Of a stretch of DNA of 64,000 bases, positions 26,085-61,620 are shown one piece after another. The notes beneath the pieces are model-generated. The model saw only the letters and a list, made by a program, of their open reading frames with translations, was not told the DNA's origin and ran no database searches. Source of the stretch: an uncultured virus (IMG/VR IMGVR_UViG_3300036760_001400) (Duplodnaviria > Heunggongvirae > Uroviricota > Caudoviricetes); IMG/VR virus record IMGVR_UViG_3300036760_001400, one strand, 5' to 3'. Within the stretch, counting starts at the first letter, position 1; each line of letters begins with the position of its first letter. A program made the position numbers and the translations under genes.

Positions 26085-26150
26085 TACCGCCGTTGGCGGT
26101 AATGGGGGTGCCTTTGATGGCAGCCAGGAACTTGAGAAACCCTCTTCTAT

Positions 26151-30207: not shown

Positions 30208-30314
30208 GAATAAGCCAACCTTTCATGGTGAGATCCGTTCCAATACCAACAACGAGCGAGACTACCCGATCTGCAGCAAAAATGTCCTTCGCCATAATCA
30301 GCCCTCCTATACCA

Positions 30315-32345: not shown

Positions 32346-32474
32346 TACGAAACCTCGATTACCTTGAAAGGCCACATAAAGATGCGAAGGAAGGTTTCTT
32401 CAAGAGTCTTCTGTTCGCGATGAGCGACAGATCAAGCGTATTCATGGGCCCTTATGTCCCCTTAAGTAAAAGGG

Positions 32475-37263: not shown

Positions 37264-37266
37264 GGT

Positions 37267-37467
37267 CTATTCCAGGCCATCCTTCTTAGGCGTCATGTTC
37301 TTGATCGATCTGGAAACGGCGTTCGGGAACCGCTTTTCCGACAACCTCATCGCCTCCATGAAGTCGAAGGCCGGAATGACGATGGTCGTCTCTTTCCGGA
37401 CGGCCAGCGGTTTGCCAGGCACCCGCTCGAACCATTCCGCATGGACCTGATACTTGATGGCTTTCAT
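37267..37467 (-). CDS. hypothetical protein, 66 aa
   Basis: AAGGA SD before MKAIKYQV. Confidence 0.5.
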   Translation of the reverse strand: MKAIKYQVHAEWFERVPGKPLAVRKETTIVIPAFDFMEAMRLSEKRFPNAVSRSIKNMTPKKDGLE

Positions 37468-37475
37468 AGCGTCCT

Positions 37476-40400
37476 TTATGGCGGACAGGCCGCAAAGATC
37501 CAGTTGGCATTCCCGGAGACGTCGACCGAGTTCGCCCCGGCATACCATCCGGCGGTGGGCCCTCCCACGCCGGTGATGCCGATATCAAGCCCGGTGATCC
37601 CCATCAGTCCCGTAATACCTTTGATTCCGGTCGGCTGGAATCCAGTGATCCCCTGGACTCCGGTCAGACCCTTGATACCCGTGATACCGCGAGAGCCGGT
37701 CAGGCCAATCACGCCGGTGGGCTGGGTCCCGGTGACACCTTGGATCCCGGTGAGACCCTGGACTCCGGTCAGGCCCTTGATGCCGACGAAAACGACAGGC
37801 GCCATGGATACCGCAAAGAGCGAGCGTTCGGCCGTGCCTTGAGAACCCGTCAAGCCGCTCATCGTCAGATCGAACTGGGTAGAGGCACTTCTCCTTTTCA
37901 CGGTCATCCATTGACCGGGCAGAAGATCGCTTGTACTGAAGCTCTTTCCGCTGTTGGTCGCGTCGCCCTGGCTTACGCCCGCCATGAGCAGGTCCGGGAT
38001 CAGACTTTCATCGACCGCGCCAAAGCTCACCTGGCCGGATCCGAACGCCCAGATATCGGCCGTCCGGGTCGGAACCAGCGTCACGGTCTGGACTGTCGCC
38101 GCGGCCGTCGAGGCCTCGGTGTAGGCATTCTGGTGATCGAGGAACTTGTTGAGGTCGATCGCGAATACAGCCGAAGCTTCCCGGGTCGCCGACCCTGCCG
38201 GAGTCGTCCGGCTCTCCTCCGTGAACGACTGGGCGGCTATCGCGAGCGCCGGGAACACCCTCATGTTCACGAACGGGATGATGGGGGCCACCAGGTCCCC
38301 GGAATCCTGAGTCTCGCACTGGGTCGAAAGGAACGGCAGCGTGTCCGTGACCGTCCCCGTGCTCTCCATTCTCGACTGATTTTCGTGAGTCGTCGCGACG
38401 GCCGGAACAAGGCTGGACAAGGTGAATACGAGCCAGTCATGACCGGCCACAGAAGGCGAGAACGAGACGCTGGCATTGTTCGAAGCCGACCAGGCTCCGG
38501 AACTCAGATCCGTGCTGGCAAGAACGGCATTGTAGTACCAGTCCGTGTTCTCCTGGAGCTGCTCGCTGATCTCGATGGCCAGGAGCTTGAAGGTATAAAC
38601 CGACGTGGTCCCTCCCGGGGAATCTGAATTTATGACCGCGAGATCCACATCGCCGCCGTCTGCGGTCCAGACCGTGAAATACGTGTACTGCCTGTTGAAT
38701 CCGTTTCTTAGATTCAGGGCGTGGAACCATTCTCTTGATCCATCAAATGGAGTACCCCCTCCGTGGATCGTCTCGATCTGCGAGACATTCGGATTTAATG
38801 TCTTTCCGCCTCCGTAGACGGCGGTCGCCACGATGAGGTACCTGCGGTTCGTGATAAAGAATGAAGACGGTATATGTGCGCCCGGCACCAGGGTCAACGT
38901 GCCGTTTGTCGTACTAAACGGCGTCGTCGACTCCGCCGTATAATGAGGAATCTGGCTGGGCTCCCCGTCCACGTCGACCCCGGTGACGCCTTTGATGCCG
39001 GTGATCCCTACGGCACTCGTCAGTCCCTGAACGCCGGTGGGCTGGTTGCCTGTGATGCCCTTGACCCCCGTAACCTGGACTCCGGTGATTCCAGAAACTC
39101 CCGTCAAACCCTGAACGCCTGTCCCACGGTTTCCCGTGATCCCCTGAACGCCGGTCATGCCCTGGACTCGCGCACCGACCGGAGTCGCAAGATCGGTGGT
39201 GATGGCGATGATCTGACGAAACTCTGCGGTCGCGCTGGTTGCGGCCTGATTATTGCCGTCTACCGTAATGGTGTGGCTCGACGACCGAAGATCCCCGAAA
39301 TACTGGAACTGGACGGGACCCACCTGATTGACGTTGACGTTTTTTTCTATGGAAAGGTTGGCTGCCGTCTGACCTGCCGGTGTGTCCACCCCGTCGGTCT
39401 GAAGCCTCGCGTTGATCGGGAAGTCTGAGGCCGGCGCGGTAAAGCCAAAAGACGACAGAGCCCATGTTTTCCCGTCCCACGTTGGATTGATTGATCCCGT
39501 CTGGATATTGGTCCCAAAGCTCGGGGGATCAAGGGTCACCCCGCCGTCGGTATACGTCGCCAGGTGGTTCTTGAATTTTGAGAGGTTAAGCGCAAAGACT
39601 GCCGAGTACGTCCTTGTTCCGTCTGGGCCACCGAGATCGCACCTCGACTCTTCCGTGAACGTGTTTGAAACGTTACTGAGGTTGAACGCCCTGACATTGC
39701 TTAAAAGGTTAATCCACGGGAAAGCCACATGGTAGCCTTGCACATACTCAAGATAAGGCGTGGTCGATGAAGCCTCTCCAGAACGATTGAGCCTGGTCGT
39801 TACGAGAGAAAAGGGCGGACCTGTAAGGACAGATTCAGAAAGGACAAGCCAGTCATCCCCGGCGTTCTGCGGAGTAAAGGTGACTGAAGCATTGTTGTAG
39901 GTCGAGAATTCGGTCGGCACGAGATCCGTGGTCTCATCGACCACATTCGAATACCAGTCTTTGTTTTCCTGGAGGAACTCCGAGATCTCCATCGCAAACA
40001 TTGTGATCTGGTCAAGAGTGGCCGAGGCTCCGGCGTTCGTGGCTTTTAGCTGAAGAGTTATCGACTCCCCTGCAATGGCCGTCCAGACATTGAAGTAGGT
40101 GTAGGTGTAGGTTGACCCTGCGTTGGTCTGCTCATTTACGAACTTCCTTGATCCTTGGAAGTCCGTAGTCCCATGGACAAGTTTTGTATTGTTCCCTGTA
40201 GCGTTTGTGCTGATGCCCATGAGCGCGTTGATGACGAGGAGATACTTCCTTCCAGCCACGAAGTTCGCGGAGCTGATCGTCGCTGCCGTGACATAAGTCA
40301 GGCTGCTGGTCGCCTGCTGGGTCATCTGCTCCGTGTAGGCCGTCGGAAGCGCCGTCGGCGTGACGCCTGTCACACCCTGGACTCCGATCCCTCCGATTCC

Positions 40401-41513
40401 GGTGATGCCCTGCACACCTGTATCGATTCCCAGAGCACCGGCGGGAGAAGCTCCCGTGGGAGCTTCGCCCGTCAGACCTCTTTGGCCGGTCAGCCCCTGA
40501 ACTCCAGTCAGTCCCTGGACTCCGGTGAGTCCCTGCACGCTGAGACCGGTATTGCCGAGGATCCCCTGGGCACCCGTGATGCCCCTAGTTCCTGTCAGGC
40601 CTTTGACCCCGGTGAGCCCCTGCTCGCCGATCGGAGACGCGCCCGTGATGCCGACCGTTCCGGTCAGGCCTTTGACGCCGGTGATTCCTTGAGTTCCAGT
40701 AAGGCCCTGCACGCCCGTCAGCCCCTGGACGCCCGTGATCGCGTTTGCGCCGGTCTCACCTTTGGCGCCGGTCAGGCCTTTGATTCCCGTCAATCCCTGA
40801 ACTCCAGTCGGAGCTTCTCCAGGAACTCCCTGCGCTCCGGTGGGCTTGAATCCAAGGACTCCGCCCGCCGCGCCGGTCAGGCCCTGGACTCCGGTCGGCT
40901 GCGCTCCCGTGGGAGCAATGCCGGTCACGCCCTGGACGCCGGTCGCACCGCTCATGACACCGGTCAGGCCCACGAAGCCCTGAGCTCCCGTCAGCCCTTG
41001 ATATCCCGTGCCGATGAAGCCGGTCGCGCCTTTTACCCCGGTGATGAACTGGATTCCGGTCAGGCCCTGAACCCCGGTGAGCCCCTGAACGCCGGTCTGG
41101 CCTTTTACGCCCGGGAATCCCACGCCGGTCAGCCCTTTGATACCGGTCGGGCCGCGGATCCCGGTTGGCCCCTTGACCCCCGTCAGGCCGTCCACGCCGG
41201 TGAGTCCTGAGATGCCGGTGTCTCCGGAAAGCCCGGTGCCGCCGACGGACCCTGTGTCTGAACCTTGAGGGCCGGTCAGGCCTTTGATTCCCGTCAATCC
41301 CTGGACGCCCGTCAGGCCTTTTGTTCCAGTCAGACCTTGAGCGCCGGTCAGGCCATCCACACCGGTCAGACCTTGAACTCCAGTCAGACCTTGAGATGAG
41401 CCAGAAACGCCGGTGATCCCAACGACGCCGGTTCCACCTGGAGACGGAGCGGCAGCTCCGGTCAGGCCTTGGATGCCGGTAAGACCTCTGACGCCCGTGA
41501 TCCCTTGAGCCAT
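37476..41513 (-). CDS. collagen-like fibre protein with two paralogous globular domains
   Basis: GLTG/GITG repeats; duplicated domain (RKYLLV/RRYLIV, EISEFLQENKDWY/EISEQLQENTDWY, SAVFALNL/SAVFAIDL). Confidence 0.85.
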   Translation of the reverse strand: MAQGITGVRGLTGIQGLTGAAAPSPGGTGVVGITGVSGSSQGLTGVQGLTGVDGLTGAQGLTGTKGLTGVQGLTGIKGLTGPQGSDTGSVGGTGLSGDTGISGLTGVDGLTGVKGPTGIRGPTGIKGLTGVGFPGVKGQTGVQGLTGVQGLTGIQFITGVKGATGFIGTGYQGLTGAQGFVGLTGVMSGATGVQGVTGIAPTGAQPTGVQGLTGAAGGVLGFKPTGAQGVPGEAPTGVQGLTGIKGLTGAKGETGANAITGVQGLTGVQGLTGTQGITGVKGLTGTVGITGASPIGEQGLTGVKGLTGTRGITGAQGILGNTGLSVQGLTGVQGLTGVQGLTGQRGLTGEAPTGASPAGALGIDTGVQGITGIGGIGVQGVTGVTPTALPTAYTEQMTQQATSSLTYVTAATISSANFVAGRKYLLVINALMGISTNATGNNTKLVHGTTDFQGSRKFVNEQTNAGSTYTYTYFNVWTAIAGESITLQLKATNAGASATLDQITMFAMEISEFLQENKDWYSNVVDETTDLVPTEFSTYNNASVTFTPQNAGDDWLVLSESVLTGPPFSLVTTRLNRSGEASSTTPYLEYVQGYHVAFPWINLLSNVRAFNLSNVSNTFTEESRCDLGGPDGTRTYSAVFALNLSKFKNHLATYTDGGVTLDPPSFGTNIQTGSINPTWDGKTWALSSFGFTAPASDFPINARLQTDGVDTPAGQTAANLSIEKNVNVNQVGPVQFQYFGDLRSSSHTITVDGNNQAATSATAEFRQIIAITTDLATPVGARVQGMTGVQGITGNRGTGVQGLTGVSGITGVQVTGVKGITGNQPTGVQGLTSAVGITGIKGVTGVDVDGEPSQIPHYTAESTTPFSTTNGTLTLVPGAHIPSSFFITNRRYLIVATAVYGGGKTLNPNVSQIETIHGGGTPFDGSREWFHALNLRNGFNRQYTYFTVWTADGGDVDLAVINSDSPGGTTSVYTFKLLAIEISEQLQENTDWYYNAVLASTDLSSGAWSASNNASVSFSPSVAGHDWLVFTLSSLVPAVATTHENQSRMESTGTVTDTLPFLSTQCETQDSGDLVAPIIPFVNMRVFPALAIAAQSFTEESRTTPAGSATREASAVFAIDLNKFLDHQNAYTEASTAAATVQTVTLVPTRTADIWAFGSGQVSFGAVDESLIPDLLMAGVSQGDATNSGKSFSTSDLLPGQWMTVKRRSASTQFDLTMSGLTGSQGTAERSLFAVSMAPVVFVGIKGLTGVQGLTGIQGVTGTQPTGVIGLTGSRGITGIKGLTGVQGITGFQPTGIKGITGLMGITGLDIGITGVGGPTAGWYAGANSVDVSGNANWIFAACPP

Positions 41514-41516
41514 CGT

Positions 41517-44330
41517 CTAGGTCCCGGTGTACTGGACGATCAGTTCGACCCTCAAACCAATGGCGGCGGTTGCGATCTGAGGGACATCGACACTGAAGAC
41601 GTCCCCCTTCTTGAAAGCGGTGATATCGGGAGCAACCGCATTGCGGGCACGGTTGCCTTGAGTCACAGCAGACCCAATCATGGGACGGTTCGCAGCCGTC
41701 GTGAAGATCGTCCCGAACGTGACTTCATAGGGCGTGGTCGAGAGCGTGCCCGTGCCCAAGTTGACGTCGACGATCGTAGTGCCGGCGGTTCCCTGGGCCT
41801 GGACACTCATGAGAACGTCCACGATCGTGCCAAACCTTGGAGCGATCGTGTTCTGATCGATGCCGGAGGAGATTACGACAGTCGAAAGATTCCAGGCCAG
41901 CGTGTCAAGCGCGATGCCGGCGCCCGTGACGCCCTGGATACCCGTCGCTCCCTGGATTCCAGTGGTACCGGCTACTCCTGTAGTCCCGCGGATTCCTGTC
42001 GCACCTTGATTGCCGGTCGCTCCCTGGATTCCAGTTTCCCCTTGAACGCCCGTCCTGCCCTGGACTCCGGTCGCTCCAGCGACTCCTGTGGCACCCTGGA
42101 CGCCGGTCGCACCTTTTGCTCCAGTCGCACCCTGCACGCCGGTCGCCCCCTGAACTCCGGTCGCTCCTGCAGTTCCCGTAGCACCCTGAATGCCTGTGGC
42201 GCCATCTGTCCCGGTCTGCCCAATCGTTCCGGTGACTCCCTGGAGTCCGGTGACCCCCTGGATCCCGATGGGGCCCACTCCGGTCGTACCTTGTAGGCCA
42301 GTAGCGCCCTGAATGCCGGTTGCACCCGCCACGCCGGTCATGCCCTGGATGCCGGTGGTTCCCTGGATGCCCGTCGCCCCAGCCACACCGGTTGCGCCCT
42401 GAGCTCCGGTCGCGCCAATGACTCCGGTAGCACCCTGGATGCCGGTCGCGCCTCCTGTTCCGGTCGTGCCCTGGCCGCCGGTCGCTCCGATGACTCCAGT
42501 TGCTCCCTGAGCTCCGGTCGCGCCCTGGATGCCGGTTGCACCGTTAACGCCCGTCGCTCCAGAGACTCCCGTAGTCCCGCGGACTCCGGTGGTTCCTTGA
42601 GGGGCGGTGGCACCCGCGACTCCAGTCATGCCCTGCTGCCCGGTAGCCCCTTGAGTGCCCGTGGCCCCCTGCACGCCGGTCGCTCCGGCGACTCCCGTGG
42701 CGCCTTGCACGCCGGTGGTTCCTTGAGCCCCGGTGGCTCCCGCGACCCCCGTCGCGCCCGCCACGCCCGTGAACCCTTGGAGGCCGGTAATGCCCGCGAC
42801 TCCGGTCGCGCCTTTCGCCCCCGTCGCGCCCGCGACTCCCGTAGCGCCCGCGACTCCCGTCGAACCTTGGACGCCGGTGGTACCAAGAATTCCAGTCACG
42901 CCCTGCAGACCGGTCGCACCCTGGACGCCGGTTTCACCCTGAACCGCTACGCCCGCGACTCCTGTCGCGCCTTTTGCTCCAGTCGCACCCTGCACGCCGG
43001 TCGCGCCCGCAATACCTGTCTCGCCCGCGACTCCGGTCATGCCCCGAATACCAGTCGCGCCCTGAGTTCCGGTCGTACCCTGAATGCCTTGAGCTCCGGT
43101 CACACCCAAGAGGCCGGTCGCACCTTGAGTGCCGGTTGCTCCTTGGATGCCGGTCGCGCCTCCTGTTCCTGTTGAGCCTTGAGGGCCTGTGGGGCCGCCT
43201 GCACCAGTCGCGCCTTGAGCACCTGTGGCACCCTGCGCTCCGGTGGCACCCTGGACTCCTGTGGCACCCGCCACTCCAGTGGCACCGGCCACTCCTGTGG
43301 CTCCCTGCGGCCCGGTCACTCCTTGATTGCCGGTGGCACCCTGAACACCGGTCATTCCCCGAAGGCCCGTGATCCCGTCCACGCCGGTGGCACCTTGAAT
43401 TCCGGTCGCGCCTTGATCTCCGGTGTCTCCGATGAGGCCGGTGACTCCCGCGACCCCGGTCATGCCTTGGAGGCCGGTGATCCCACGGACTCCGGTCGCA
43501 CCCTTGATCCCGGTTGCTCCTGGATCAGGGCCCGTCTCGCCCGCGACTCCGGTTGTGCCGTCCACGCCGGTCGCACCGGCCACTCCCGTCGCTCCAACCT
43601 GTCCGGTTGCACCCTGGACTCCGGTCGTGCCTTGAAGTCCGGTAGCGCCCTGCACCCCTGTGGCGCCGGCGACTCCCGTGGCACCTTGCGGTCCAGTGAC
43701 TCCTGAGATGCCCGTGGCCCCTTGCGGCCCCGTCTGGCCCTGGCCTGATGCTCCGGTACTTCCCTGGATGCCGGTCACCCCTTGCGTGCCGGTGGGCCCT
43801 GGGATTCCAGTGGCGCCATCGATGCCGGTTGCACCCTGGACGCTTGTGGCGCCCTGCACGCCGGTCGCGCCTGAGACGCCCGTTTCACCTTGAAGTCCTG
43901 TTGAGCCGAACGTCCCCGTGATGCCCTGGACTCCGGTCGAGCCTTTCGCTCCGGTTGCGCCGTCCGTGCCGGTCGCGCCGTCCATCCCGGTCTCGCCCGC
44001 GACGCCGGTGGCCCCCACGGCTCCCGTGACGCCAATGGGGCCCGTCGCACCCTGGATGCCGGTCGCACCCCGTACGCCGGTCTCTCCACGGATTCCAGTT
44101 GAGCCGTCGATGCCGGTTGCACCATCGACGCCCGTTGCACCCTTGATTCCGGTAACACCATTAACGCCGGTAACTCCAAGAATGCCCGTCACCCCAGCAG
44201 GTCCGGTTGCACCCTGAAGGCCTGTCACACCCAGTGCTGAAGGGCCGGTTGTACCGTTGATTCCGGTAAAACCCTGAAGGCCGGTGACACCTTGAGTGCC
44301 ACCGCCCCCGCCCCCACCCATATCAGACAT
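41517..44330 (-). CDS. long collagen-like protein
   Basis: about 800 aa of [12 protein letters not shown] triplets plus a C-terminal globular domain. Confidence 0.9.
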
Positions 44331-51045: not shown

Positions 51046-51918
51046 TTAGTGCTTGACCATCTGATCCCACATCAGGATCGACTCGATCCAGCCCAGGAGA
51101 CAAACCTCGACCTTACGGTCCACCTTGGCAAGGTTCGACGCTACGATTGAAACGTGGTGACGATCGGTGATCTCGATGAGCGTATTCCCGATCTGATCGG
51201 GGAGGCACTGAAGATCCTGGCTGTTCTGAGACTGGACCGTTCCGTAGATGATACCCCCGGACGTCACCGTAGAACCCTGGGACTGGGACATCCACTTGAT
51301 CCCGGATCCATCGACCTTGAATGTGACCCCGACCATAGAAGGACACAGGGCATCATAAACGAGCATCTTTGTCCACTTGAAGATGGTCCTCAAGTTGACA
51401 AAGGTATCGAAGGATCCGAGTTCTACTGTTCCGGGAATGACACCGTCCTCGGAAGCCGGGGCGTCCGCGCAGAAACTGTAACGAATGATCTCCGCATCAC
51501 GGGAAGGCTCGATGTGGATCTGCTTCTTGATGATCGGAAGCTGAGAGAAAGGCGGAGGGCATTCGAACGGAGCTATGGACGGACGGCAGTAAGGATTTTC
51601 AATCTGGGTCATCGCCTCAGACTCGACTCTCGGCTGGCGAAGCATCGCTTCCCCGGTCGGAATCATCTGAGCCTGAATTCCCCGACCCAGGATACGAGTC
51701 GGATCGTAGAGGATCTCGTCAGGCGTAGTATCTACATACCTGCGAGGGAATCCACGTTTGAACGATGGGTAGACTGGACTGTTGAACTTCTGGTACTGGG
51801 CCTCGGTCCGGACCCCATCATCAGGAATCTTCGCGTCATTGTCGTAGACGGAGGGACCCCTGTCTTCACTGGAATCAGAACCAGGGCGCCCAGGTTCGGG
51901 TCGCTTGAACATACTCAT
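51046..51918 (-). CDS. putative minor capsid protein with C-terminal jelly-roll-like domain
   Basis: C-terminal IEITDRHHVSIVASN...VEVCLLGW parallels the ends of the two upstream capsid-like genes. Confidence 0.45.
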   Translation of the reverse strand: MSMFKRPEPGRPGSDSSEDRGPSVYDNDAKIPDDGVRTEAQYQKFNSPVYPSFKRGFPRRYVDTTPDEILYDPTRILGRGIQAQMIPTGEAMLRQPRVESEAMTQIENPYCRPSIAPFECPPPFSQLPIIKKQIHIEPSRDAEIIRYSFCADAPASEDGVIPGTVELGSFDTFVNLRTIFKWTKMLVYDALCPSMVGVTFKVDGSGIKWMSQSQGSTVTSGGIIYGTVQSQNSQDLQCLPDQIGNTLIEITDRHHVSIVASNLAKVDRKVEVCLLGWIESILMWDQMVKH

Positions 51919-51944
51919 GACAACGCCTCCTTGAGTATGAGCGA

Positions 51945-52457
51945 CTACCGAGTAAAAACTTTAATTCCGTGAATGACCAGCTCGATCGTCAGCGTCGCGC
52001 TTGCGCTCGTGTTGGTGATCTCCACCTGGATGGCAATGTTGGCACGGAAACGCCGACGTCCCTTGATGATGTAGGGACGCTGGGCGGTACCCGCGCCGTT
52101 ATCCGCATCAATGAAGTCGCCGTCCTGGGTCAGCGTCCGACCGACCGCTTCGCCTTCCTTGATCCTGAACCTGAAGGCATTCGTCGCCACGGGAGGCGTA
52201 GCCGCATCGACCGCCGTATAGGTGATCTCGATTGCGTCATAAGGGCCGTCGCCCGAGACGGTCTTCGTGATGACCGCCGTACCTCCGGGAGCGATCGAGA
52301 GAAACCGGAACGGAAAGAGAACCCAGTCCTCTGTCACATCCTCGGCAACTTTGAGGCGGCCAAGCTGGCCGATATATTGCTCGATACCGTTGATTCTATC
52401 GGCGATCTCCCCAAGCGAAGGCTCAGCGCCGAAACCGTTTCCACGTCGTCCGTTCAT
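51945..52457 (-). CDS. putative single-jelly-roll capsid protein
   Basis: all-beta 170 aa; GTAQRPYII...IQVEITNTS...IELVIHGIK; AGGAG SD; follows the putative MCP. Confidence 0.55.
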   Translation of the reverse strand: MNGRRGNGFGAEPSLGEIADRINGIEQYIGQLGRLKVAEDVTEDWVLFPFRFLSIAPGGTAVITKTVSGDGPYDAIEITYTAVDAATPPVATNAFRFRIKEGEAVGRTLTQDGDFIDADNGAGTAQRPYIIKGRRRFRANIAIQVEITNTSASATLTIELVIHGIKVFTR

Positions 52458-52499
52458 CGTCGTCTCCTAAGCACTCACTTGGACAGGTTTAAGGGAGAG

Positions 52500-52527
52500 C
52501 CCGGCTCCCCCTTTCGGGGGAGCCGGG
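52500..52527 (-). terminator. 12-bp hairpin downstream of the putative MCP gene
   Basis: CCCGGCTCCCCC/GGGGGAGCCGGG with GAAA loop on the - strand; no U tract. Confidence 0.5.
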
Positions 52528-52591
52528 ACTTGACTCCACATGGACAGCTACTTCATGTCTCAGTCGGCCGGCAATCAAGCCGACCTGACGG

Positions 52592-54621
52592 TTACATGAT
52601 GGGCTTCGTCCGGCGTCCGAGGAAGAGCACGCGCAGGCGGACCGACTCCGTAGGAGCGATACCGCCCGACCAATCCAGCAGCACCGTGAAGGTGTCGCCC
52701 GGATCGATCGTCACCAGGAACGGCCTCGTGAACGAGAGGACGTTGGTGATGTTGCCCGGCCCGGCAACCGACCGGAACTCGGGAGCCGCCGCGGCCCCGC
52801 GGACGGACTCGAGGAGCGACGCCCCGCCCATGACGAACTCGATGGGGATCGGATCGGGGATGTCGACAGAGTTGATGACCAGCGTGAAGCTGCCGTTCTG
52901 GACCAGCTTCGCGTTGGCGGTGAGGGTCAAGTCCTCCATTTTCACTCAGCGTATCCACGTCTTCTATTATGCACGTGGGCCGGACTGTATATTCGCCGGA
53001 TCTCGGCGGCCTTGTCAGTCTCTAGCGCGTGGATCCATTGTTTTCACGCGACGGTCTCGTGCCCGCTTGGGCTTTAACCGTTATTCGGCTGTTGCATGAA
53101 GGCTTCCGCCTTCAAGGGGCAATGTTAGTTTACCCAGGACCTGATCTGGAAGGCATTGACACCTGTGAGCTGTCCACCGCAGTCTGTTACTTTAATTGAC
53201 CAGAACCAAGGTTCTGGCGGTCACCTATTTCTAAGTGACTCCCGCTGTTTCCAGCGGGTTCAGAACGTATCATCGACTCGGCTTCGAGTCGCCCTTTGTC
53301 CTGAGGAGAACCAAGTTTGTGGCGGAGAGAAGGAACAAAATATTGTTCCAAGCGAGGAGCCATCTTATCTCGCCAGTCTTTCCATCGGAAATAGATGTTG
53401 AAGTAGACGCGCAGTGTTCCATCCTTCAGATAGTTCTTGTCTTTGTAAACTACCGAAGAAATTCCATACCGCAAGTCAAGCCAACCGCTGATAAGCTTGT
53501 TCTCTTCCTCCGTATAGCCATGAGTACAAAGCTTAACATTGTGGTTGACTACCTTGAGCTTATCCTTGCGATACTTGTGGCTAGAACTCCCATCGTCCAT
53601 AAACCAGATAGCCATTCCATGATCATCAAGCTGATCAAGAATCCTCTGGTTAACAGTCTTATAGAGCTTTCTGGTACCGTTCGAGTAATGCTCTACACGA
53701 CAGTTCTCATGAAAGATAGACCACAACTTCTGCCACTCAACATCACCTGATGTTCGGAATCTCCAAGTTGGCCATTCCTTCCCATTTACGGAAGACATGA
53801 TCATTTTTGGAGCAGCACGTACCATAGGCTTCAGCAGATCATATTTGTAAAACACATACTCCTTCTGGGCTTCTGAATGACCCAGCTCCATCATTGCCTT
53901 CTTGCCACGAGGATTAATGCTGGCGTCACCAAGCATCATCCCGTACAAAATGCTTCGATGGGTGTTTACAAAACGACGAACTGTCAGCGTATCTACATGC
54001 TTAACATCAGCGTTTCCCACAAAGGTTCTCCTGGTTCGTTCGGGCGGAGTTCCCTTTGATCCAAGGGGTTTCCGCCACGGTATTGTCTCAACGCGCTCAC
54101 TACACGTCAAGAGTTCCACCGTTATTAGGGTTCTCATCCAAGGTTACCCTTGGAGAGGGCCGAAGTTGACCTGCATGTTGGTTTCGGTCGCGGTCTTTCC
54201 GCCCTGCCCTTCGGGAACAGAGAAATACCTCTGCTCCGTGGTCAGGGTCGGCGTGGCTGCAACCGTGTTGGTATCATACAACCCGCTTGTTACCAATGAC
54301 TTGCGTCATTGGGATAGATCCTTTCGGTCTACCTCTTGCAGTTCGTTTTCTGCAAGTCCAGACTGTTGCATCACCCCGAAGGGTGCCCTCTCGCTCAGTC
54401 GTTCACGGTGACCATGATTATAATCGTGATCTTCCGCCTCGTTGGCATCTCAGCGTTCGAGTCAATCAGAGAGAGTTTTACAGGCGCCAGTTGCACAAAC
54501 GCCTGGTACACGTTTTTCGCCGGATCGTAACGTGTTGAAATTCAAGGACTTATTGTCCTTGGTCCCACGGTTTCATGAGGTTTCACTCAAGAAGGGCGCG
54601 ATCACCCTTGACGCGAGACAT
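52592..54621 (-). CDS. putative major capsid protein (single-jelly-roll type), spliced from five exons, 185 aa
   Basis: exons 54604-54621, 54499-54520, 54169-54283, 53132-53179, 52592-52946 total 558 nt and read MSRVKGAKNVYQAWLYDT...YFSVPEGQGGKTATETNMQVGGQL...FQIRSWVVKMEDL...LRVLFLGRRTKPIM without stops; AGGAG SD; high GC3. Confidence 0.7.
52947..53131 (-). mobile_element. group I intron 4, 185 nt, no ORF
   Basis: exon GGGU pairs with GCCC (U-G); P10 CAUU/AGUG; P7 GACUG/CAGUC; P9 CCACGU/ACGUGG; terminal G. Confidence 0.8.
53180..54168 (-). mobile_element. group I intron 3, 989 nt, with homing endonuclease
   Basis: exon ends in U, P1 GGUC/GGCC; P4 CGGU/ACCG; P7-like GAACG/CGUUC; ends GUAACAGACUG; removal restores MQV-GGQL. 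Confidence 0.8.
53187..54020 (-). CDS. intron-encoded LAGLIDADG homing endonuclease (two motifs)
   Basis: ILYGMMLGDASI and MAIWFMDDGS; AGGAG SD before GTG 54020; AT-richer than the exons. Confidence 0.88.
   Translation of the reverse strand: MGNADVKHVDTLTVRRFVNTHRSILYGMMLGDASINPRGKKAMMELGHSEAQKEYVFYKYDLLKPMVRAAPKMIMSSVNGKEWPTWRFRTSGDVEWQKLWSIFHENCRVEHYSNGTRKLYKTVNQRILDQLDDHGMAIWFMDDGSSSHKYRKDKLKVVNHNVKLCTHGYTEEENKLISGWLDLRYGISSVVYKDKNYLKDGTLRVYFNIYFRWKDWRDKMAPRLEQYFVPSLRHKLGSPQDKGRLEAESMIRSEPAGNSGSHLEIGDRQNLGSGQLK
54284..54498 (-). mobile_element. group I intron 2, about 215 nt, no ORF
   Basis: P1 CAGGCGU/GCGCCUG; P10 UGCAACU/GGUUGUA; P7 GACUG/CAGUC; ends GUAACAAGCG; junctions uncertain by 1-2 nt. 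Confidence 0.8.
54521..54603 (-). mobile_element. 83-nt group-I-like mini-intron (intron 1) with no visible catalytic core
   Basis: P1 AAGGGU/GCCCUU; P10 UCGC/GCGA; terminal G; unspliced frame hits TGA; removal restores the frame. Confidence 0.6.
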
Positions 54622-54795
54622 ACAAAACTCCTGAAACGTTCGACGGGTTGTAAGCGGGTTATCCCGTCAATCCCGCATATACCCAATCTCCAGCTGATCA
54701 GGCTGGAGAAAGAGATCATCTTTCTTTACCAGACGAAGCCCGTTTTTCAAAGATCCATGACGATCTTTCCATCGCCATGTACAACCAATCAATAT

Positions 54796-54870
54796 TGGTA
54801 GCGAGTCTTGGAGTCGCACCAGGTCCTCCGGCTTATGAAACCGGCGAAGCACCTCGGCTTCCGACTCGCG
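54796..54870 (-). tRNA. tRNA-Met (CAT), initiator-like
   Basis: acceptor GCGAGT/ACTCGC with 1:72 mismatch, anticodon arm CCGGT-TTCATAA-GCCGG, T-loop TGCGACT, encoded CCA. Confidence 0.85.
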
Positions 54871-54890
54871 CTATCTATCACAGAGCAAAC

Positions 54891-54925
54891 AAAAAAGGCC
54901 CGGAGAGCTTTCGCTCTCGGGCCTT
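54891..54925 (-). terminator. intrinsic terminator between the promoter and the tRNA/MCP
   Basis: GGCCCGAGAGC-GAAA-GCTCTCCGGGCC followed by TTTTTT. Confidence 0.75.
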
Positions 54926-54962
54926 GTGTGCCCCGCGTTGGACCTGTTGTCCCTTGGTGATG

Positions 54963-54990
54963 ATTATACGGTATGGCCGGTTAAGATCAA
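54963..54990 (-). promoter_or_regulatory. sigma70-type promoter
   Basis: TTGATC-16-TATAAT. Confidence 0.55.
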
Positions 54991-55014
54991 GAACTAAAAT
55001 GAAAGGAGAGCGTT

Positions 55015-55428
55015 ATGCGATTCACGGTAAACTTCGACCCGAAAAACCTCAGCGTGAAAAAGCCTGAATTCGAGGTAGAGAATTTCTTCATCATTCCCGG
55101 CTCAAGGATCGAAAATCTCAAGGAAGGCTATGGTCTGAAGATCTCCAGCATGGTCTGCATCCGATGTGAACGCGATATCATCCAGATCTCCGCATGTTCA
55201 AACGGAACCGGAAGTCTCGTGTGCCAATGTTCCTACTGGTCTTCCGATATATCCCCTTTCAGTGGGACAGCCCATGTCCAGGGGAGCTTGAAACACGAGT
55301 CTATCATGAGTGTCGAACAAAAAGCAGAGATGCTTCTCAGAGAGCTTACGAACGATCGCGACAATATCTATCAGGAAAGAAAGGGATTCACCCCTGAAGT
55401 CCGCAGAGCTCTCAAGGAGCTTCTTTGA
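55015..55428 (+). CDS. Cys-containing hypothetical protein, divergent from the capsid operon
   Basis: AAAGGAG SD; CIRC...CQC. Confidence 0.6.
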   Translation: MRFTVNFDPKNLSVKKPEFEVENFFIIPGSRIENLKEGYGLKISSMVCIRCERDIIQISACSNGTGSLVCQCSYWSSDISPFSGTAHVQGSLKHESIMSVEQKAEMLLRELTNDRDNIYQERKGFTPEVRRALKELL

Positions 55429-55443
55429 TCACGGCATGAGTAG

Positions 55444-55478
55444 AAAAAGAAAGGGCCCCCCTTTCGGGGGGCCCTTCT
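55444..55478 (-). terminator. intrinsic terminator between convergent genes
   Basis: GGGCCCCCC/GGGGGGCCC stem with a U-rich tail on the - strand. Confidence 0.7.
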
Positions 55479-55498
55479 ATCTACAAGCCCTGGAGGCT

Positions 55499-56815
55499 TT
55501 AGAACATCGCCGAGTCTTCGCTCGGCTCCTCGTCCCCTACGTCACCCAGGAGCTCCTCCTCGGTCACGATCCGCTGCCCGACATCGCTGACATCCCGGAG
55601 TTCATCCTGATCCGGAATGCGGGCCTGCGAAAGGTAACCCAGGTCGCGGAGTTCATCCTGGTCGGGAATCCGTGCCTGACCCAGACCGAACCCGGAGAGA
55701 CCCGGGATCTTCGGAAGGACATACGGCTTGACGAGCTCATCCTCGATGAACCGGCCGAAAGCGTACATCGCGCCGTACTGAGCCAGATTCCCGGACCCGA
55801 CGAGCCGGCCCAGCTCCCACGAGCCGACCGCCGACAGCGCCACGGGCGCGAACCTGGACAGAAGACCCATGATCCCCGGATCAGCGGGCTTGAGGAACGT
55901 GAGCATCCCGGTCAGTTTCTTCGCCGCCGCCGTGATGATGGGCGAGAGAGAAACGCCGCCGAGAGCCTCAAGACCGGACATGGAGGCAGCCATCTGGAAG
56001 GGCCCGACGATCGGCATGGAACCGGCCACCGAAGCGTCGGCGAGGCCAGCCATCATGCTCGAGTATCCGAGACCCTTGAGACCGAAGAACGACCCCAGGC
56101 CGCCCATCTTGCGACCGCCACGACGGCTACGACGCCGGGTGGAACGAGCCCGACGACTCCCACGACGGGAACGACGGGTCCGACGGGCCGCGCGATGACG
56201 ACGACGGGTCGCCTTCGCCTTACGACGGCTCTTCCGACGCTTCTTGTGGGACCCAAGGCCAGACAGGCCCTTGAGAGCCGCAAGCGTCTGGGACAGACCG
56301 CTCATGCGACGACGACGACCGCTGGACTTCCGACGCTTGTGACGACGGACCTTCGGTGCCGAGATCTTCGCGATGGTACGGGCAGCCGACTTCCGACGCC
56401 GACGGCTCCGACGCTTGGTCTTGGGAGCCTCGACAACAACCTGGCGATGACGCCGACGGCTGCTGCGACGACGACGGCCATGGACGCGAACCCGACGCGA
56501 ACGACGGGAACGCCGACGACCATGGGCGCGAACCCGACGGGAACGCCGACGGCTCTTCGACCGACGATGGCGCCGACGGCTCTTGACCCGACGAGCGCGG
56601 CCACGCGACCGATGCTTACGGCCCTTCCGACTCTTACGGCCCTTACGAGCCTTCCGCGTGCGACCGAGGCCTACATAGCCAAGGCCGTCCTCATCGTCCC
56701 CGTAATCACCGAGGCCGGAGAGGTCCGTGTCCAGGACATCCATGGGATCCATCTCATCGAGATCGATCTCATCTTCCCAGACAGGAGCGGAATTCGACAG
56801 GAGCTTCTTGGACAT
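55499..56815 (-). CDS. Arg/Ser-rich putative DNA-condensing core protein precursor
   Basis: AGGAG SD before MSKKLL; acidic N-terminus, about 180 aa of Arg-rich tracts punctuated by GLG/GLS, hydrophobic region, QARIPDQDELRD twice. Confidence 0.7.
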   Translation of the reverse strand: MSKKLLSNSAPVWEDEIDLDEMDPMDVLDTDLSGLGDYGDDEDGLGYVGLGRTRKARKGRKSRKGRKHRSRGRARRVKSRRRHRRSKSRRRSRRVRAHGRRRSRRSRRVRVHGRRRRSSRRRHRQVVVEAPKTKRRSRRRRKSAARTIAKISAPKVRRHKRRKSSGRRRRMSGLSQTLAALKGLSGLGSHKKRRKSRRKAKATRRRHRAARRTRRSRRGSRRARSTRRRSRRGGRKMGGLGSFFGLKGLGYSSMMAGLADASVAGSMPIVGPFQMAASMSGLEALGGVSLSPIITAAAKKLTGMLTFLKPADPGIMGLLSRFAPVALSAVGSWELGRLVGSGNLAQYGAMYAFGRFIEDELVKPYVLPKIPGLSGFGLGQARIPDQDELRDLGYLSQARIPDQDELRDVSDVGQRIVTEEELLGDVGDEEPSEDSAMF

Positions 56816-56905
56816 GTGTAATTCTCCTGGAAAACCACCTGCAAAGGGCGCTAAGCCCCAGGACATCCGTTCGAAGACGGCCCCAAACAAGGGGACATCT
56901 CAACG

Positions 56906-57341: not shown

Positions 57342-57878
57342 TTAAGACAACTTCGATAAAACAACCAGGAAGGAATATCGGTCTGGTCCTATATCCGGCT
57401 CAAAAAGATCGATCGAAGTCTCTTTTAGCTGCTCGAGGTACCACATGAACACTTCCATCGTCAGGAAGTGGGCGTGAGCTGGATTCCTGACCTTTGGATT
57501 CGCGGGATCGTACTTGTAATGGACCTCGCTCGGCAGGTAAAGGATCATCTTTCCACCTGGCTTTACGAATGAAAGCCAGTACCTGAGGGTTTCGAGTATA
57601 GGGTTCTTCACATGCTCCAGTGCATGGCTCGAGAAAAGGACATCGTAGAACTGAGGTCTCTTTGAAACGAAAAGCTCATGGACAAGAACACCGGAGTGAT
57701 CAGGATCGATAGGAGACGCGATATCGATAGATGGAGGCTTCTTCGACCACTCCCTGGCGTCATCCACGCCGACAGCCCACGGTACGATCTTGGTGCCCCC
57801 GCATCCCAAATCGAGAACACTCTTTCCTTTGAGATAGGAAAGAACGCGTGGAAGAATCTTCTCGCCTTCAGTGGCCAC
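57342..57878 (-). CDS. class I SAM-dependent methyltransferase
   Basis: VLDLGCG, FSSHALEH, VKPGG. Confidence 0.85.
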   Translation of the reverse strand: MATEGEKILPRVLSYLKGKSVLDLGCGGTKIVPWAVGVDDAREWSKKPPSIDIASPIDPDHSGVLVHELFVSKRPQFYDVLFSSHALEHVKNPILETLRYWLSFVKPGGKMILYLPSEVHYKYDPANPKVRNPAHAHFLTMEVFMWYLEQLKETSIDLFEPDIGPDRYSFLVVLSKLS

Positions 57879-57886
57879 TTTCCGTC

Positions 57887-59455
57887 CTACGTGTAGAATC
57901 GTCTGGGAGAAATACCTTTAAGCTGGTATTCCCGGACAGAAGTCTCGCTTTCCGAGATCACCTGAGCAGGCTCAAGCTTGTCCATACAGTAGACCTTGTC
58001 CCTGAAGCATCCTGTCGTGACTCGTGGAGCTTGAAGGTAATGGTTGCATCCGAGGCAGCCGACATTTTCCGCCATCACACCACGAAAGTATGGAGTATCC
58101 GGAGGAAGCCTGTAAGCAGGATCAATACATCCAAAGACCGCTGCGATGGGAAGGTCAGCTGCAACCGCCAAGTGCATCGGAAACGAATCGATTCCAATAT
58201 AGAGAGAAGCCCGCCTCATCAGGCATGCCAGCTGATGCATGGTTGTCCGGTTCCTGAGATCAAGGTCACAGGGTACGGAGTTGTTGAGAATGAATCCGGT
58301 GAGTACCGTGAAGTAACCCTTTTTACGCCAGTAGTTCACGACTTCCGCGAACTTTACGTTGGTCCAGTTCCTCCCGACCCAGGCCGTGGGTCCAGGATTG
58401 ATGATCAGAATCGGCCTTCCCCTTGGAACGGTGGCATCAGCCCAACGGTCATCGTCAGAAGTCGGAAAGACCTCTGGAATATAGCTATCCAACTTGACGT
58501 CACAGGCTTCTGCATAAGCCTTGACGATATGGATCATAGGCCGGCGTTCATAGGCGAAGTCAAGGTCGTAGAAGTGGTCGTAGTTGGTGATGGGAAGCCT
58601 GAAACCGTTCTCGAGACGATCGATATTGGGGTTACGGGTCACGATATCCGGGAATCCGGTGATAAGCGAAATCTTCACATCAGGCCACTTCTTCCTGAGA
58701 GACCTGAAGATCGGGGTCACCAGAAGGACATCCCCGGTAGCTGAAGTCCTTCGGATCAAGACCGTCTTTGAGAAACTTCTCCGTTCAAGATAGTTCTTCC
58801 ACTGGTTCTTGAATATGGCCGCATTCCTGGCCTTGTATCCATCGAGATCAACGGTCTTTTTGACGAGTTCGGAAGTCTTTGATCCATGATGGAGGAGCTT
58901 CACATCGGCCTGGGAGATCAAGTAACCGGCTTCCCTCATCCGAAGCGAATAGTCCGCGTCCTCGTTATAAGCGAACCGATATATATCCAGGAAGAGCCCA
59001 TGCTTCCTGGCAAGGGAAACGGGGGTCATGAGACATGAACCCTCGATATATTCGACAACAGTTCCAGGGCATCCGACCCCTTCCTTTGTCAAGGCGGAAC
59101 ACTGGCCTTTGGTTCCTACGACAGCAACCTTCGGATCACTGAAACATGCTCCCATGGTCGTGAGCCAGCTTGGAGGGACTTCGACATCATTGTTAAGGAC
59201 AACGAAATACTCCCCCTTGGCCATCAGGAGAGCGTTGTTATGGGGAACCCCAAATCCAAGATTCTTCTCGTTCCGAACAACAATGACCCTGGGATCCGCT
59301 AAAGCCAGAGCATCCAGATAATCCAGGGTATCCTTCTCCGAAGCATTGTCCGTGACAATCAGCTCGAAATCAGAGCTATGCTTGAAAATGGAATCAAAAC
59401 ATCCCCGGGTGAATCCGAGGAGATTATGAACCGCGACAGAGATGGAGTATTTCAG
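57887..59455 (-). CDS. GT2 + GT9 fusion glycosyltransferase, probable CTG start
   Basis: frame stays open upstream of ATG 59224 as KYSISVAVHN...IVTDNAS...NLGFGVPHN; GT9 motifs GDVLL, IGIDSFPMHLA. Confidence 0.85.
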   Translation of the reverse strand: MKYSISVAVHNLLGFTRGCFDSIFKHSSDFELIVTDNASEKDTLDYLDALALADPRVIVVRNEKNLGFGVPHNNALLMAKGEYFVVLNNDVEVPPSWLTTMGACFSDPKVAVVGTKGQCSALTKEGVGCPGTVVEYIEGSCLMTPVSLARKHGLFLDIYRFAYNEDADYSLRMREAGYLISQADVKLLHHGSKTSELVKKTVDLDGYKARNAAIFKNQWKNYLERRSFSKTVLIRRTSATGDVLLVTPIFRSLRKKWPDVKISLITGFPDIVTRNPNIDRLENGFRLPITNYDHFYDLDFAYERRPMIHIVKAYAEACDVKLDSYIPEVFPTSDDDRWADATVPRGRPILIINPGPTAWVGRNWTNVKFAEVVNYWRKKGYFTVLTGFILNNSVPCDLDLRNRTTMHQLACLMRRASLYIGIDSFPMHLAVAADLPIAAVFGCIDPAYRLPPDTPYFRGVMAENVGCLGCNHYLQAPRVTTGCFRDKVYCMDKLEPAQVISESETSVREYQLKGISPRRFYT

Positions 59456-59994: not shown

Positions 59995-61620
59995 TTAAAA
60001 CTCCAAGTCCATTTTCTTAAAAATCACCGGACTCTGCCATCCCAATTTAGCTCCAGAGACAGTTGGATCGCTGGCAATCCATGGAGACCGTTCCGTAGGT
60101 TTCGCGACCACATATACGTGGGTATACTGCTCGGGTACTTCAGGATTTGCAGCAATTGCACGCGCTCCTACACCTGGGAAGCCAACCATGAGCAGCATGG
60201 CTCCTTCAAGCATGGTCTTATCGTCGCAGTTATGCTGAACGAGACCTTCCTCGGTAACCACATTGTGATTATCAAGAACGGTGATATCGCAACACTCGGC
60301 CTCTCCAGCCTCTTCAAACTTCTTAAGAGGAGCAGGAGCAAGGTCGGTAGAAACAGGCTTGTAGCCCCTGATATTTTTCCGCTCGATCAACCTCCAGATA
60401 GGAGAATGGCCAGCTCCCATATGGTTCATCTGGAGATACGGATGGAGTGTCCGTCCCATAACCAAATGAACAAGGCAAAGCATCCTGGCCAAGTGAGAAG
60501 AAGACGTGTTATGGATCAAGTTTGCATACTTAGCCCAAGCATGTTCGTCCTTGGGTTTGTAGGCATCTCCCAAAGCATAACCATCGATCAGAGCCTCGAG
60601 TTCAGACCTGGTCTTCGAGAGATAGTCCTCAGGAATCGTCTTCTCAAAAGACCCGCGTCCAAACTTCCTGAGGATCTCTTCTCGGAAGGCGTGATTCGAG
60701 GTACGCATGACCTTGACGCCATTGGACTGATGGGTCACGTAGTAAGGAACTCCGATCCGACCCATCGCGTCCGTAAGGAACGAAAAGAGAACAGGATCCT
60801 TGATCCCGATCGAAACGCGCTCATGGTTTCTATGATTCTTTTCATACCACCCTTCGGCCAAGTACATTCCTTCGATAAAGAGCCTGTCCGAAGTGGTCGC
60901 ATCAACGGAACCAAGCTCAGGAATCTTGAGAGCAAACGGAAGACGAGGAGCTCTCTTGTCTGTGAAGGACGAGAAGATCTCGTTAGCTCTTGCCTCCCGC
61001 TTACCAGGGCTCTTCCCTGAAGCCAGGAAGTAATCCATAAGATGCTGACTCGAGACCCTGAGTTCACGCGCGTTCTTCGTCCTGAGCTTGTATGTCTCCT
61101 TCACTCCCTTGTCATACCAGGCCACGATCGGCTTGAACTCAAAGGAGCTGATACCATAGTTGTACGAAAGAGCGTCATACTCGGCAAAGGAACCTTCGAG
61201 TTCACCGAGGCGCTTCACTCGATACGTATTATCGAGCTTCCTACGAAGGATAACCTTCGTATCTTTCTGGAAAGCATCCCCTCCTCCGATCATGAGCGTC
61301 CGGGCCGGCCAGACGAGCGTCTCGTGCTTCCGAGCATCACGCGTCCAACGGATATCGTCTCGAACAAAATCATGGATAGCCTTGTACTCACCAAGAAAAT
61401 CCTTCGGACGGACGCCGGCCTTCAGGATCGTGGCAATGGCCGCCTCACGGATGACCGGTCCATGCTCAGGGTGACGGACACTTTTCCAGACGATCTCTTT
61501 CATCCGGATCAGCGTGGCTTTCGTTCCCTTGTCTCCCCCTGGAATGGGAGTCAAGGTAAGACGTGAAGGAGGAAGAACACCAAGCCGGGTGGCTTGGGCA
61601 AGATTCCACATACGTGCCAT
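59995..61620 (-). CDS. transglutaminase-like cysteine protease containing an intein (192 aa after splicing)
   Basis: exteins join as GGGD-CDDK; THVY and SDPT complete a Cys-His-Asp triad; HDFVRDDIRW...D motif. Confidence 0.8.
   Translation of the reverse strand: MARMWNLAQATRLGVLPPSRLTLTPIPGGDKGTKATLIRMKEIVWKSVRHPEHGPVIREAAIATILKAGVRPKDFLGEYKAIHDFVRDDIRWTRDARKHETLVWPARTLMIGGGDAFQKDTKVILRRKLDNTYRVKRLGELEGSFAEYDALSYNYGISSFEFKPIVAWYDKGVKETYKLRTKNARELRVSSQHLMDYFLASGKSPGKREARANEIFSSFTDKRAPRLPFALKIPELGSVDATTSDRLFIEGMYLAEGWYEKNHRNHERVSIGIKDPVLFSFLTDAMGRIGVPYYVTHQSNGVKVMRTSNHAFREEILRKFGRGSFEKTIPEDYLSKTRSELEALIDGYALGDAYKPKDEHAWAKYANLIHNTSSSHLARMLCLVHLVMGRTLHPYLQMNHMGAGHSPIWRLIERKNIRGYKPVSTDLAPAPLKKFEEAGEAECCDITVLDNHNVVTEEGLVQHNCDDKTMLEGAMLLMVGFPGVGARAIAANPEVPEQYTHVYVVAKPTERSPWIASDPTVSGAKLGWQSPVIFKKMDLEF
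60229..61275 (-). mobile_element. intein, 349 aa, with LAGLIDADG-type domain and Ala at position 1
   Basis: block A AFQKDTKV, block B LRVSSQH, GMYLAEG and GYALGD, block F CCDITV..NHN, C-terminal HN then Cys. Confidence 0.85.

Follow-up and report, generated by a model that had tools for sequence, protein, structure and literature searches.

The window analysed here is the whole 64,000-nucleotide (nt) stretch of IMG/VR record IMGVR_UViG_3300036760_001400, DNA of an uncultured virus assigned to the Caudoviricetes, and our subject is an 83-nt insert that follows the sixth codon of the gene for its putative major capsid protein. This gene lies on the minus strand and starts with the ATG at 54621, behind a Shine-Dalgarno-like sequence (Table 1). 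Left unspliced, the frame from this ATG reads MSRVKGDRALLE and then meets a TGA, so that it is open for 12 codons only, as the first-pass annotation of the window had stated and as the letters and the frame confirm. The exon map was derived from a 219-amino-acid metagenome protein (containing ...LMSRVKGAKNVYQGWLYDTNTVAATP...DVGGQLTGVNAFQIRSWVVKMQDL...), which, when searched back against the window with tblastn, matched in four separate pieces and three frames; the largest downstream open piece (52945-52592, 117 codons) is 74% identical to it. The five exons, joined by script, make 558 nt with the sole stop at the end, i.e. 185 codons, and the predicted N-terminus of the spliced product is MSRVKGAKNVYQAW. 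Excision of the insert had been claimed to give MSRVKG-AKNVYQAW-LYDT in frame, which is exactly what intron-less relatives of the gene encode, and the distance of 22 nt to the start of intron 2, likewise claimed, is borne out by the exon map. With the insert retained, the rest of the gene has no start codon except a GTG inside exon 2, which is without a ribosome site and at which a start would lose ten invariant residues. No second copy of the gene was found by tblastn in the 64-kb window, and tblastn with all open reading frames (ORFs) of the related loci found no other gene of the window that is split by a short insert.

Table 1. Exons, introns and RNA elements of the interrupted gene in the window
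Feature	Position	Strand	Remark
Shine-Dalgarno-like CAGGAG	54628..54633	-	6 nt 5' of the ATG; GGAGG/GGAGA at this place in relatives
Exon 1, ATG TCT CGC GTC AAG GGT (MSRVKG)	54604..54621	-	Final U is the 5' splice-site U
Mini-intron (the insert), 83 nt	54521..54603	-	P1, P10 and terminal G of group I type, without P3-P9 core
Internal guide, UCGC + GCCCUU	54592..54601	-	P10 + P1
P2-like hairpin, CUUGAG-UGAAAC-CUCAUG	54574..54591	-	Resembles P2 of intron 4 and of the L016 intron
In-frame TGA	54583..54585	-	Ends the unspliced frame
7-bp hairpin, CAAGGAC-AAUAA-GUCCUUG	54543..54561	-	Extended by CGUGGGA/UUC..CACG in the minimum free energy fold
CACGUU	54529..54534	-	Can pair with AACGUG of exon 2, 6 bp (minimum free energy fold of exon 1-insert-exon 2)
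Terminal G	54521..54521	-	Omega-G position
Exon 2, 22 nt	54499..54520	-	AKNVYQA and first base of W
Intron 2, 215 nt	54284..54498	-	Complete group I topology
Exon 3	54169..54283	-	
Intron 3, 989 nt	53180..54168	-	LAGLIDADG ORF at 53187-54137; own P1 weak (3 bp), P10 3 bp
Exon 4, GGQLTGVNAFQIRSWV	53132..53179	-	
Intron 4, 185 nt	52947..53131	-	Compact group I intron
Exon 5	52592..52946	-	Includes the stop codon

The insert bears group I splice signals. AAGGGU, with which exon 1 ends, forms a P1 helix of 6 base pairs (bp) with the intron sequence GCCCUU (54597-54592; intron positions 7-12), with a U.G pair at the splice site; UCGC (54601-54598), directly 5' of GCCCUU, forms a P10 of 4 bp with GCGA, the first bases of exon 2, and directly adjoins P1; and the insert ends in a G. 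All three signals had been reported at first pass and hold on inspection, and their joint occurrence is rare, as 200,000 shuffles of the 83 nt gave a P1 of at least 6 bp with a contiguous P10 of at least 4 bp in 84 cases and the terminal G as well in 17. Beyond the guide and the P2-like hairpin there is a 7-bp hairpin inside a longer imperfect stem, and the minimum free energy (MFE) of the insert is -22.3 kcal/mol (z -2.85; 2 of 200 shuffles as good). One MFE stem (35-41/65-73) has a 2-nt AA bulge between G-C pairs, where assignment of a P7 would be arbitrary. From the sequence and the MFE fold, no P3/P7 pseudoknot, J8/7, P8 or P4-P6 can be placed in the 83 nt; this agrees with the initial statement that P7 and P3-P8 are missing, none being visible, whereas introns 2 and 4 have GACUG...CAGUC. 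Rfam gave no match in the window at the gathering threshold, in 51500-55500 at E<=10 or with the isolated introns, and since the full introns 2 and 4 go unmatched as well, this result is uninformative on the insert. Together these observations support the description of the insert as a group-I-type intervening sequence with exact P1/P10/terminal-G geometry and without a catalytic core.

An early worry was that a longer intron had been mis-assembled at this place. At the level of contigs this is answered by a Logan contig of 38,554 nt from the probable source run, made by a different assembler at depth 78.7, which is identical to the window over 52500-54900 (2401 nt), shows no joint or loose end at the insert and offers no alternative form. 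Three other sediment samples yielded low-depth contigs that match parts of the locus without a difference, among them one of 151 nt, from a second sample, which covers 54599-54749 and crosses the boundary of exon 1 and the insert by 5 nt. No joint that bypasses the insert was present in the contigs of four DNA runs. The insert is real, precisely delimited and group-I-derived.

Relatives of the gene come from 19 metagenome loci (L001-L019), from L031, an IMG/VR contig of 105,993 nt, and from L032, a contig in a metagenome-assembled genome of the Nitrospiraceae; the contig of L017 ends before the N-terminus, and counts for this region rest on 20 loci. All 20 begin (M/V/L)SRVKGAKNV behind a GGAGG-type ribosome site, for which reason the longer N-terminus of P0001 is regarded as an over-extended gene call. 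The stretch SRVKG-AKNVYQ(G/A)W-LYDTN is uninterrupted in 18 of them; the other two, L016 and L031, have an intron of 245 and 288 nt, respectively, after GTN-T, at a site between those of the insert and of intron 2 in the window, 13 nt past the former and 9 nt before the latter. An insert after Gly6 is absent from every one of the 20. Alignment to intron-less homologues, which the first-pass annotation had proposed as a check, matches both the junctions and the N-terminus. The codon for Gly6 is GGT in the window alone (GGC in 13 relatives, GGA in seven, GGT in 0/20), and so only the window supplies the U required at position -1 of a group I 5' splice site; each of the other three introns is preceded by a T that the protein sequence fixes.

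Comparison of the joined exons with five relatives gave a ratio of nonsynonymous to synonymous substitution (dN/dS) of 0.09-0.18 at dS 0.74-0.98, and the gene is by a wide margin the best conserved of the locus, with 65-91% protein identity against roughly 25-60% for its neighbours. The gene is under strong purifying selection, and the insert therefore very likely must be removed, which lends support to the argument, made at the outset, that an insert in a needed gene has to be taken out.

The other three interruptions are full introns. Intron 2 has the order P3 (7 bp) - P4-6 - P7 - J7/3 - P3' - P8 - J8/7 - P7' - P9 hairpins, with a P1 of 7 bp, a P10 of up to 10 bp, P7 GACUG/CAGUC, P8 CACCC-UUCG-GGGUG and a 6-nt J8/7, AUGCAA (z -3.05). 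Its P8-J8/7-P7' block is common to the introns of L016 and L031 (L016-I and L031-I), between which there are compensatory changes in P2 and P8. Similarly, the MFE fold of intron 4 recovers P2, P4, P5, P6, P7 (GACUG/CAGUC), P8 and P9 (z -3.79; 0/200 shuffles as good), and this intron also has a 6-nt J8/7. Two L019 introns share the type of intron 3, whose ORF encodes a LAGLIDADG homing endonuclease (PF03161, E 1.9e-25). The group I label of the three rests on helix assignment and folding, because Rfam finds none of them. By inspection, the guides of introns 3 and 4 also fit the GGGU exon end. A crude P7/J8-7 descriptor scan of the window returned introns 2 and 4 and six further matches, and gave no evidence for a free-standing core. 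One peculiarity of intron 3 is that its guide, GCCCU (54168-54150, minus strand), can form 5 bp with AGGGU, in which exon 1 ends, and 4 bp with the last bases of exon 4, while its own 5' exon (GGU) offers it only 3 bp; the guide seems to stem from a GGGU site and to rely now on a weak P1, perhaps with help from the LAGLIDADG protein.

Likeness of the insert to such introns was measured by local comparison of its first 42 nt with their first 70 nt, against 2000 shuffles. This 5' domain scored 14 with L016-I (0/2000 shuffles as good), 12 with the L019 intron L019-A (5/2000), 11 with intron 3 (17/2000), 10 with intron 4 (62/2000), 8 with L031-I (446/2000) and 6 with intron 2 (1600/2000), which it does not resemble; its last 35 nt resemble the end of L031-I only (21/2000). 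The P2-like hairpin had been likened to that of intron 4, CUUGAAGGC-GGAA-GCCUUCAUG, and the base of the two hairpins is indeed the same (C-G, U.U, U-A, G-C, A-U). The idea that the insert is a recent deletion derivative of intron 4 specifically was dropped because global alignments were not significant, and apparent remnants of P7 and J8/7 (GAC..AAUAA..GUCC), as well as the likeness of a hairpin to one in L031-I, were both within chance. Searches for further copies found 0 matches of the exact hairpin pattern in viral contigs, and a pattern of guide plus P2 occurred at 11 loci, all rejected as antisense or coding chance matches. A DNA search of phage GenBank records gave no match. As just one copy of the element is known, a test for covariation is impossible.

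The reading that we favour, tentatively, is that the insert is a non-autonomous, group-I-derived intron which is spliced by a co-transcribed group I core. It would have kept the substrate side, i.e. the guide (P1 with exon 1, P10 with exon 2), the P2 hairpin and the terminal G, and have lost the catalytic side, P3-P9 with the guanosine site. Docking of P1 is independent of sequence, and the P1 of the insert, formed in cis, could dock into the core of a complete ribozyme from the same transcript. The core could be that of intron 2, which lies 22 nt downstream, or of intron 3 or 4, whether still in the transcript or excised and free, and the borrowed core would carry out the two usual transesterifications, by which AAGGGU would be joined to GCGAAAAAC. 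We infer three things here, namely that the insert is removed, that group I chemistry removes it and that a neighbouring core is the agent. Nothing singles out intron 2, which is nearest but has a 5' domain unlike that of the insert, those of introns 3 and 4 being alike. Chemistry of this kind appears feasible by analogy: a Tetrahymena group I ribozyme engineered to act in trans is reported to excise a coreless intron of 100 nt from a pre-mRNA, both in vitro and in E. coli (PMC4509937), and for a Twort gene that contains three introns, cross-talk between adjacent group I introns has been reported in the form of skipped exons (PMC3073962).

Several points weigh against this borrowing. Were intron 2 excised first, the nearest core would be lost, and the yield would then depend on the order of events or on free intron RNA. 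Pairing of the insert with introns 2, 3 and 4, tested with duplexfold against shuffles, was no better than chance (143, 94, 24 and 128/200 shuffles as good), and global alignment of the insert with the full introns was not significant, the best being intron 4 (z 1.83, 14/300 shuffles as good). There is one copy of the element only, as blastn-short against the window and L001-L019 gave no other; introns 2 and 4, two of the proposed lenders, are themselves not recognised by Rfam; and no run on record as RNA contains this DNA. Literature searches gave no natural group I core that splices another, coreless intron.

Considering what else the insert could be, the alternative that survives best, although we think it unlikely, is a dead allele, in which a remnant of a full intron, its core deleted, stays unspliced and leaves the gene inactive; the lineage would then be defective or have died out recently, or would depend on rescue by intact genomes that co-infect or by a further copy of the gene. 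The single copy and the lack of an RNA run that contains the DNA are in keeping with this, and a 5' part like a normal intron 5' domain followed by an unalignable rest is what internal deletion predicts; the perfect P1 and P10 would be uninformative if the loss were recent. On the other side stand the depth of 78.7 with no alternative form in the contigs, the recurrence of the boundary of exon 1 and insert in a second sample, five exons that are intact, in frame and at low dN/dS, three other introns and a homing-endonuclease ORF that are likewise intact, the lack of a second gene copy in the window, and the unique GGT, which fits a site shaped for splicing. Depth, second sample, intact exons and GGT argue against a dead allele, and a recent loss is still compatible with them.

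Improbable, to our mind, is an autonomous minimal ribozyme, in which the 83 nt would self-splice with the help of flanking RNA, like the introns of 56-81 nt in fungal small-subunit ribosomal DNA (SSU rDNA). In every solved group I ribozyme the active site is built by J8/7, J4/5, the P3/P7 pseudoknot and P4-P6, none of which the insert has, and to our knowledge the activity of the fungal mini-introns has not been widely reproduced. The insert does have P1, P10, a stem with an AA bulge between G-C pairs, a possible 6-bp pairing of CACGUU with AACGUG of exon 2 and a fold that beats shuffles (z -2.85), but its intron/exon pairings (6 bp and 8 bp) are, by rough arithmetic, at about chance level, and the fungal introns end in U and lie in rDNA. 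The first-pass annotation had taken as a premise that 83 nt cannot self-splice; this is disputable in view of the short fungal introns which Harris & Rogers report, one of which, of 67 nt, is said to splice in vitro only with about 300 nt of 3' flank (PMC3160393).

A shade less probable is a protein-dependent removal, in which the agent would be a maturase-type helper such as the LAGLIDADG protein of intron 3, or an endonuclease together with an RNA ligase, viral or from the host. Maturases stabilise a core but do not stand in for one. Intron 3 encodes a LAGLIDADG protein, and such proteins of organellar group I introns are reported to be capable of serving as maturases, in some cases for other introns in trans (PMC3073962). 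Among the 78 window ORFs scanned against Pfam there was no RNA ligase or splicing-endonuclease family. The archaeal-type bulge-helix-bulge, i.e. two 3-nt bulges with the cut sites, 4 bp apart and with flanking helices, likewise does not fit by inspection, the sole 4-bp central helix (GGGU/AUCC) having its cuts at unequal bulge positions and no flanking helices.

An assembly artefact, be it a full-length intron collapsed or foreign sequence joined, could be suspected in any metagenome-derived window, but is made very improbable by the identity of the independent Logan contig over 2401 nt without joints or loose ends at the site, by the same boundary in a second sample and by the exact splice-site geometry of the insert. 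Least credible of all is a translational bypass, in which ribosomes would skip the 83 nt in the manner of phage T4 gene 60: the gap is short, structured and early in a late gene, with a stop soon after its start, but the take-off codon GGU (Gly) mismatches CCG before GCG on the landing side, a landing on the GGC close by would put translation into another frame (EKRV...), a hop from AAG to AAA would cost G-A-K, invariant in 20/20 relatives, the stop lies 6 codons past the gap start and not adjacent to it, and the exact P1/P10/terminal-G geometry would be left unexplained.

The product of the gene has no sequence match in Pfam, PHROG or the PDB, and its matches in the protein atlas are unnamed viral clusters only; a profile search found 86 family representatives. 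A structure model of the relative from L011, made with 68 sequences, is an all-beta jelly roll (predicted local distance difference test (pLDDT) 90.3, predicted template modelling score 0.82); an earlier model from 14 sequences (pLDDT 47.7) was left aside. The solved chains closest to it are capsid proteins of single vertical jelly roll viruses, namely SPV1 6oj0_T (Z 8.3, root-mean-square deviation (rmsd) 3.8, 142 residues aligned), HHIV-2 6h82_b (Z 8.1, rmsd 6.1, 116 aligned), P23-77 VP17 3zmn_A (Z 7.0, rmsd 4.1, 121 aligned) and HCIV-1 6h9c_D (Z 6.8, rmsd 4.7, 131 aligned), at scores to be read with the tool's remark that Z of 7-8 is common for unmatched models; the best Foldseek E-value against the PDB was 1.8e-3. 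Viruses of this kind (P23-77 with VP16/VP17, HHIV-2, SPV1) have two capsid proteins, and here too a weakly similar gene, of 170 amino acids, directly follows (51945-52457). From the model and its neighbours in structure space, a role as putative major capsid protein is plausible.

This 185-codon gene is an intron hot spot, with six insertion sites over the window and three relatives (L016, 5775-6019; L031, 3739-4026; L019, 704-1042 and 1075 to the contig end), three of the six falling within 22 nt at the N-terminus. Free-standing LAGLIDADG ORFs lie directly downstream of the gene in L001, L007, L016 and L017. L032 (58,741 nt) holds the closest intron-less relative of the gene, with 91% identity to the protein of L011, and its binning with a Nitrospiraceae genome is either a hint at the host or a binning accident. 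Just upstream of the ribosome site, at 54641-54672 on the minus strand, there is a leader element, GACGGG-(A/U)AACC(C/U)GC...AACCCGUC(G), whose stem GACGGG/CCCGUC surrounds a conserved loop; it occurs at the same place in L002-L005, L007 and L011-L016, is kept though the coding sequence of the relatives is near saturation at dS, and could be a translational operator or a late-promoter element. Further upstream, a promoter-like TTGATC-16-TATAAT (10/12) in 54990-54890 (minus strand) is followed after about 40 nt by what, by eye, is a strong GC hairpin with a U run, GGCCCGAGAGC-GAAA-GCUCUCCGGGCC-UUUUUU, a layout that recalls antitermination-controlled late promoters.

Some other genes of the window also deserve mention. 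A protein of 463 amino acids (55499-56890, minus strand), encoded upstream of the capsid-type gene in most related loci, has long runs of R, K, S and H (RRRHRRSKSRRRSRR...) and may be a DNA-condensing or internal core protein. The 541-amino-acid ORF at 59995-61620 (minus strand) has relatives of 212-286 amino acids in L010, L013, L014 and L016, which match its two ends only (61584-61273 and 60231-59998); the in-frame insert of about 1040 nt between them, with a weak Pfam match to Intein_splicing (E 0.00098) and a long form in L002 and L005 too, is probably an intein, and the motif GAGDCDD in the host protein is presumably of the transglutaminase-type protease kind. There are three large collagen-repeat proteins (34762-44330, 23587-32375 and 57342-59224, all on the minus strand; 833, 1345 and 937 amino acids) and a sugar-modifying block with a DegT aminotransferase, an epimerase, several glycosyltransferases, a GNAT and a family 9 heptosyltransferase-like enzyme. 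Known single-jelly-roll-type viruses have genomes of about 16-35 kb, compared with the 105,993 nt of the related contig L031, and collagen-repeat and sugar-modifying genes are unusual cargo for a virus of that type.

Set beside known systems, the insert shares with full-length group I introns, the kind to which introns 2-4 belong, the U at -1, a guide with P1 and P10, the terminal G, and a position in a highly conserved stretch of an essential gene beside homing-endonuclease introns; those have at least 200 nt and a full P3-P9 core, which the 83-nt element lacks. Euglena plastid group III introns and spliceosomal introns are viewed as group II introns stripped of their catalytic domains, and are alike in being short and in keeping splice-site signals while catalysis is thought to be external, but they belong to another ribozyme class, form a lariat and use no guanosine cofactor. 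We know of no group I case of a core-stripped intron with external catalysis.

The fungal mini-introns are nuclear and lie in SSU rDNA, with lengths of 63-75 nt in Phialophora (PaSSU), 63 nt in Arthonia and 78 nt in Porpidia (Harris & Rogers 2011, PMC3160393); they are reported to have only P1, P7, P10 and a pairing between intron middle and 3' exon (PM), at rDNA position 1516/516. The insert is like them in being below 100 nt, in lacking a P3-P6/P8 core and in its possible pairing of intron middle and 3' exon, and they are regarded as deletion products of full-length introns. They differ in their eukaryotic rDNA setting, terminal U, claimed P7 guanosine site and self-splicing with long flanks; the insert interrupts a gene for a protein in a prokaryote-type virus, has G as its last base, and shows a P2 hairpin, no convincing P7 and three complete group I introns adjacent. 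The 'spliceozymes' (Amini & Muller, PMC4509937) are alike in that an outside group I core removes a coreless mRNA intron of about 100 nt in two normal steps in bacteria, but there the ribozyme carries the guides and binds both splice sites. In the present, natural and putative case the guide lies in the insert itself, so that a P1 helix already formed would need to be accepted by a core from elsewhere.

The insert is a variant of things already known, the group I introns and those fungal mini-introns that are under dispute. The literature searches brought up no phage mini-intron, and as far as they went the insert is the first such element from either a prokaryotic virus or a gene that codes for a protein. 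A practical consequence is that gene callers will miss the whole gene, which has five exons, two of only 18 and 22 nt. Group I introns are the textbook case of introns that are their own enzymes; here only the address labels remain, in a gene that is apparently still needed. If the insert is removed, it must either borrow its catalytic core or get by with much less RNA than catalysis was believed to need, and synthetic RNA of a few hundred bases would be enough to test both answers directly. The second, if true, would bear on the disputed fungal mini-introns. The first, if true, would mean that introns divide their labour in nature, an arrangement for which the laboratory-made 'spliceozymes' have hitherto been the only example; it would be the first group I case from nature in which catalysis comes from outside the intron, and the group I counterpart of the presumed step from group II introns to coreless introns served by trans-acting RNAs. 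The insert may then be, as one possible outcome to which we lean with reserve, a natural 'parasite of ribozymes', a substrate-half group I intron that survives in an essential capsid-type gene on cores lent by the complete introns of its own transcript.

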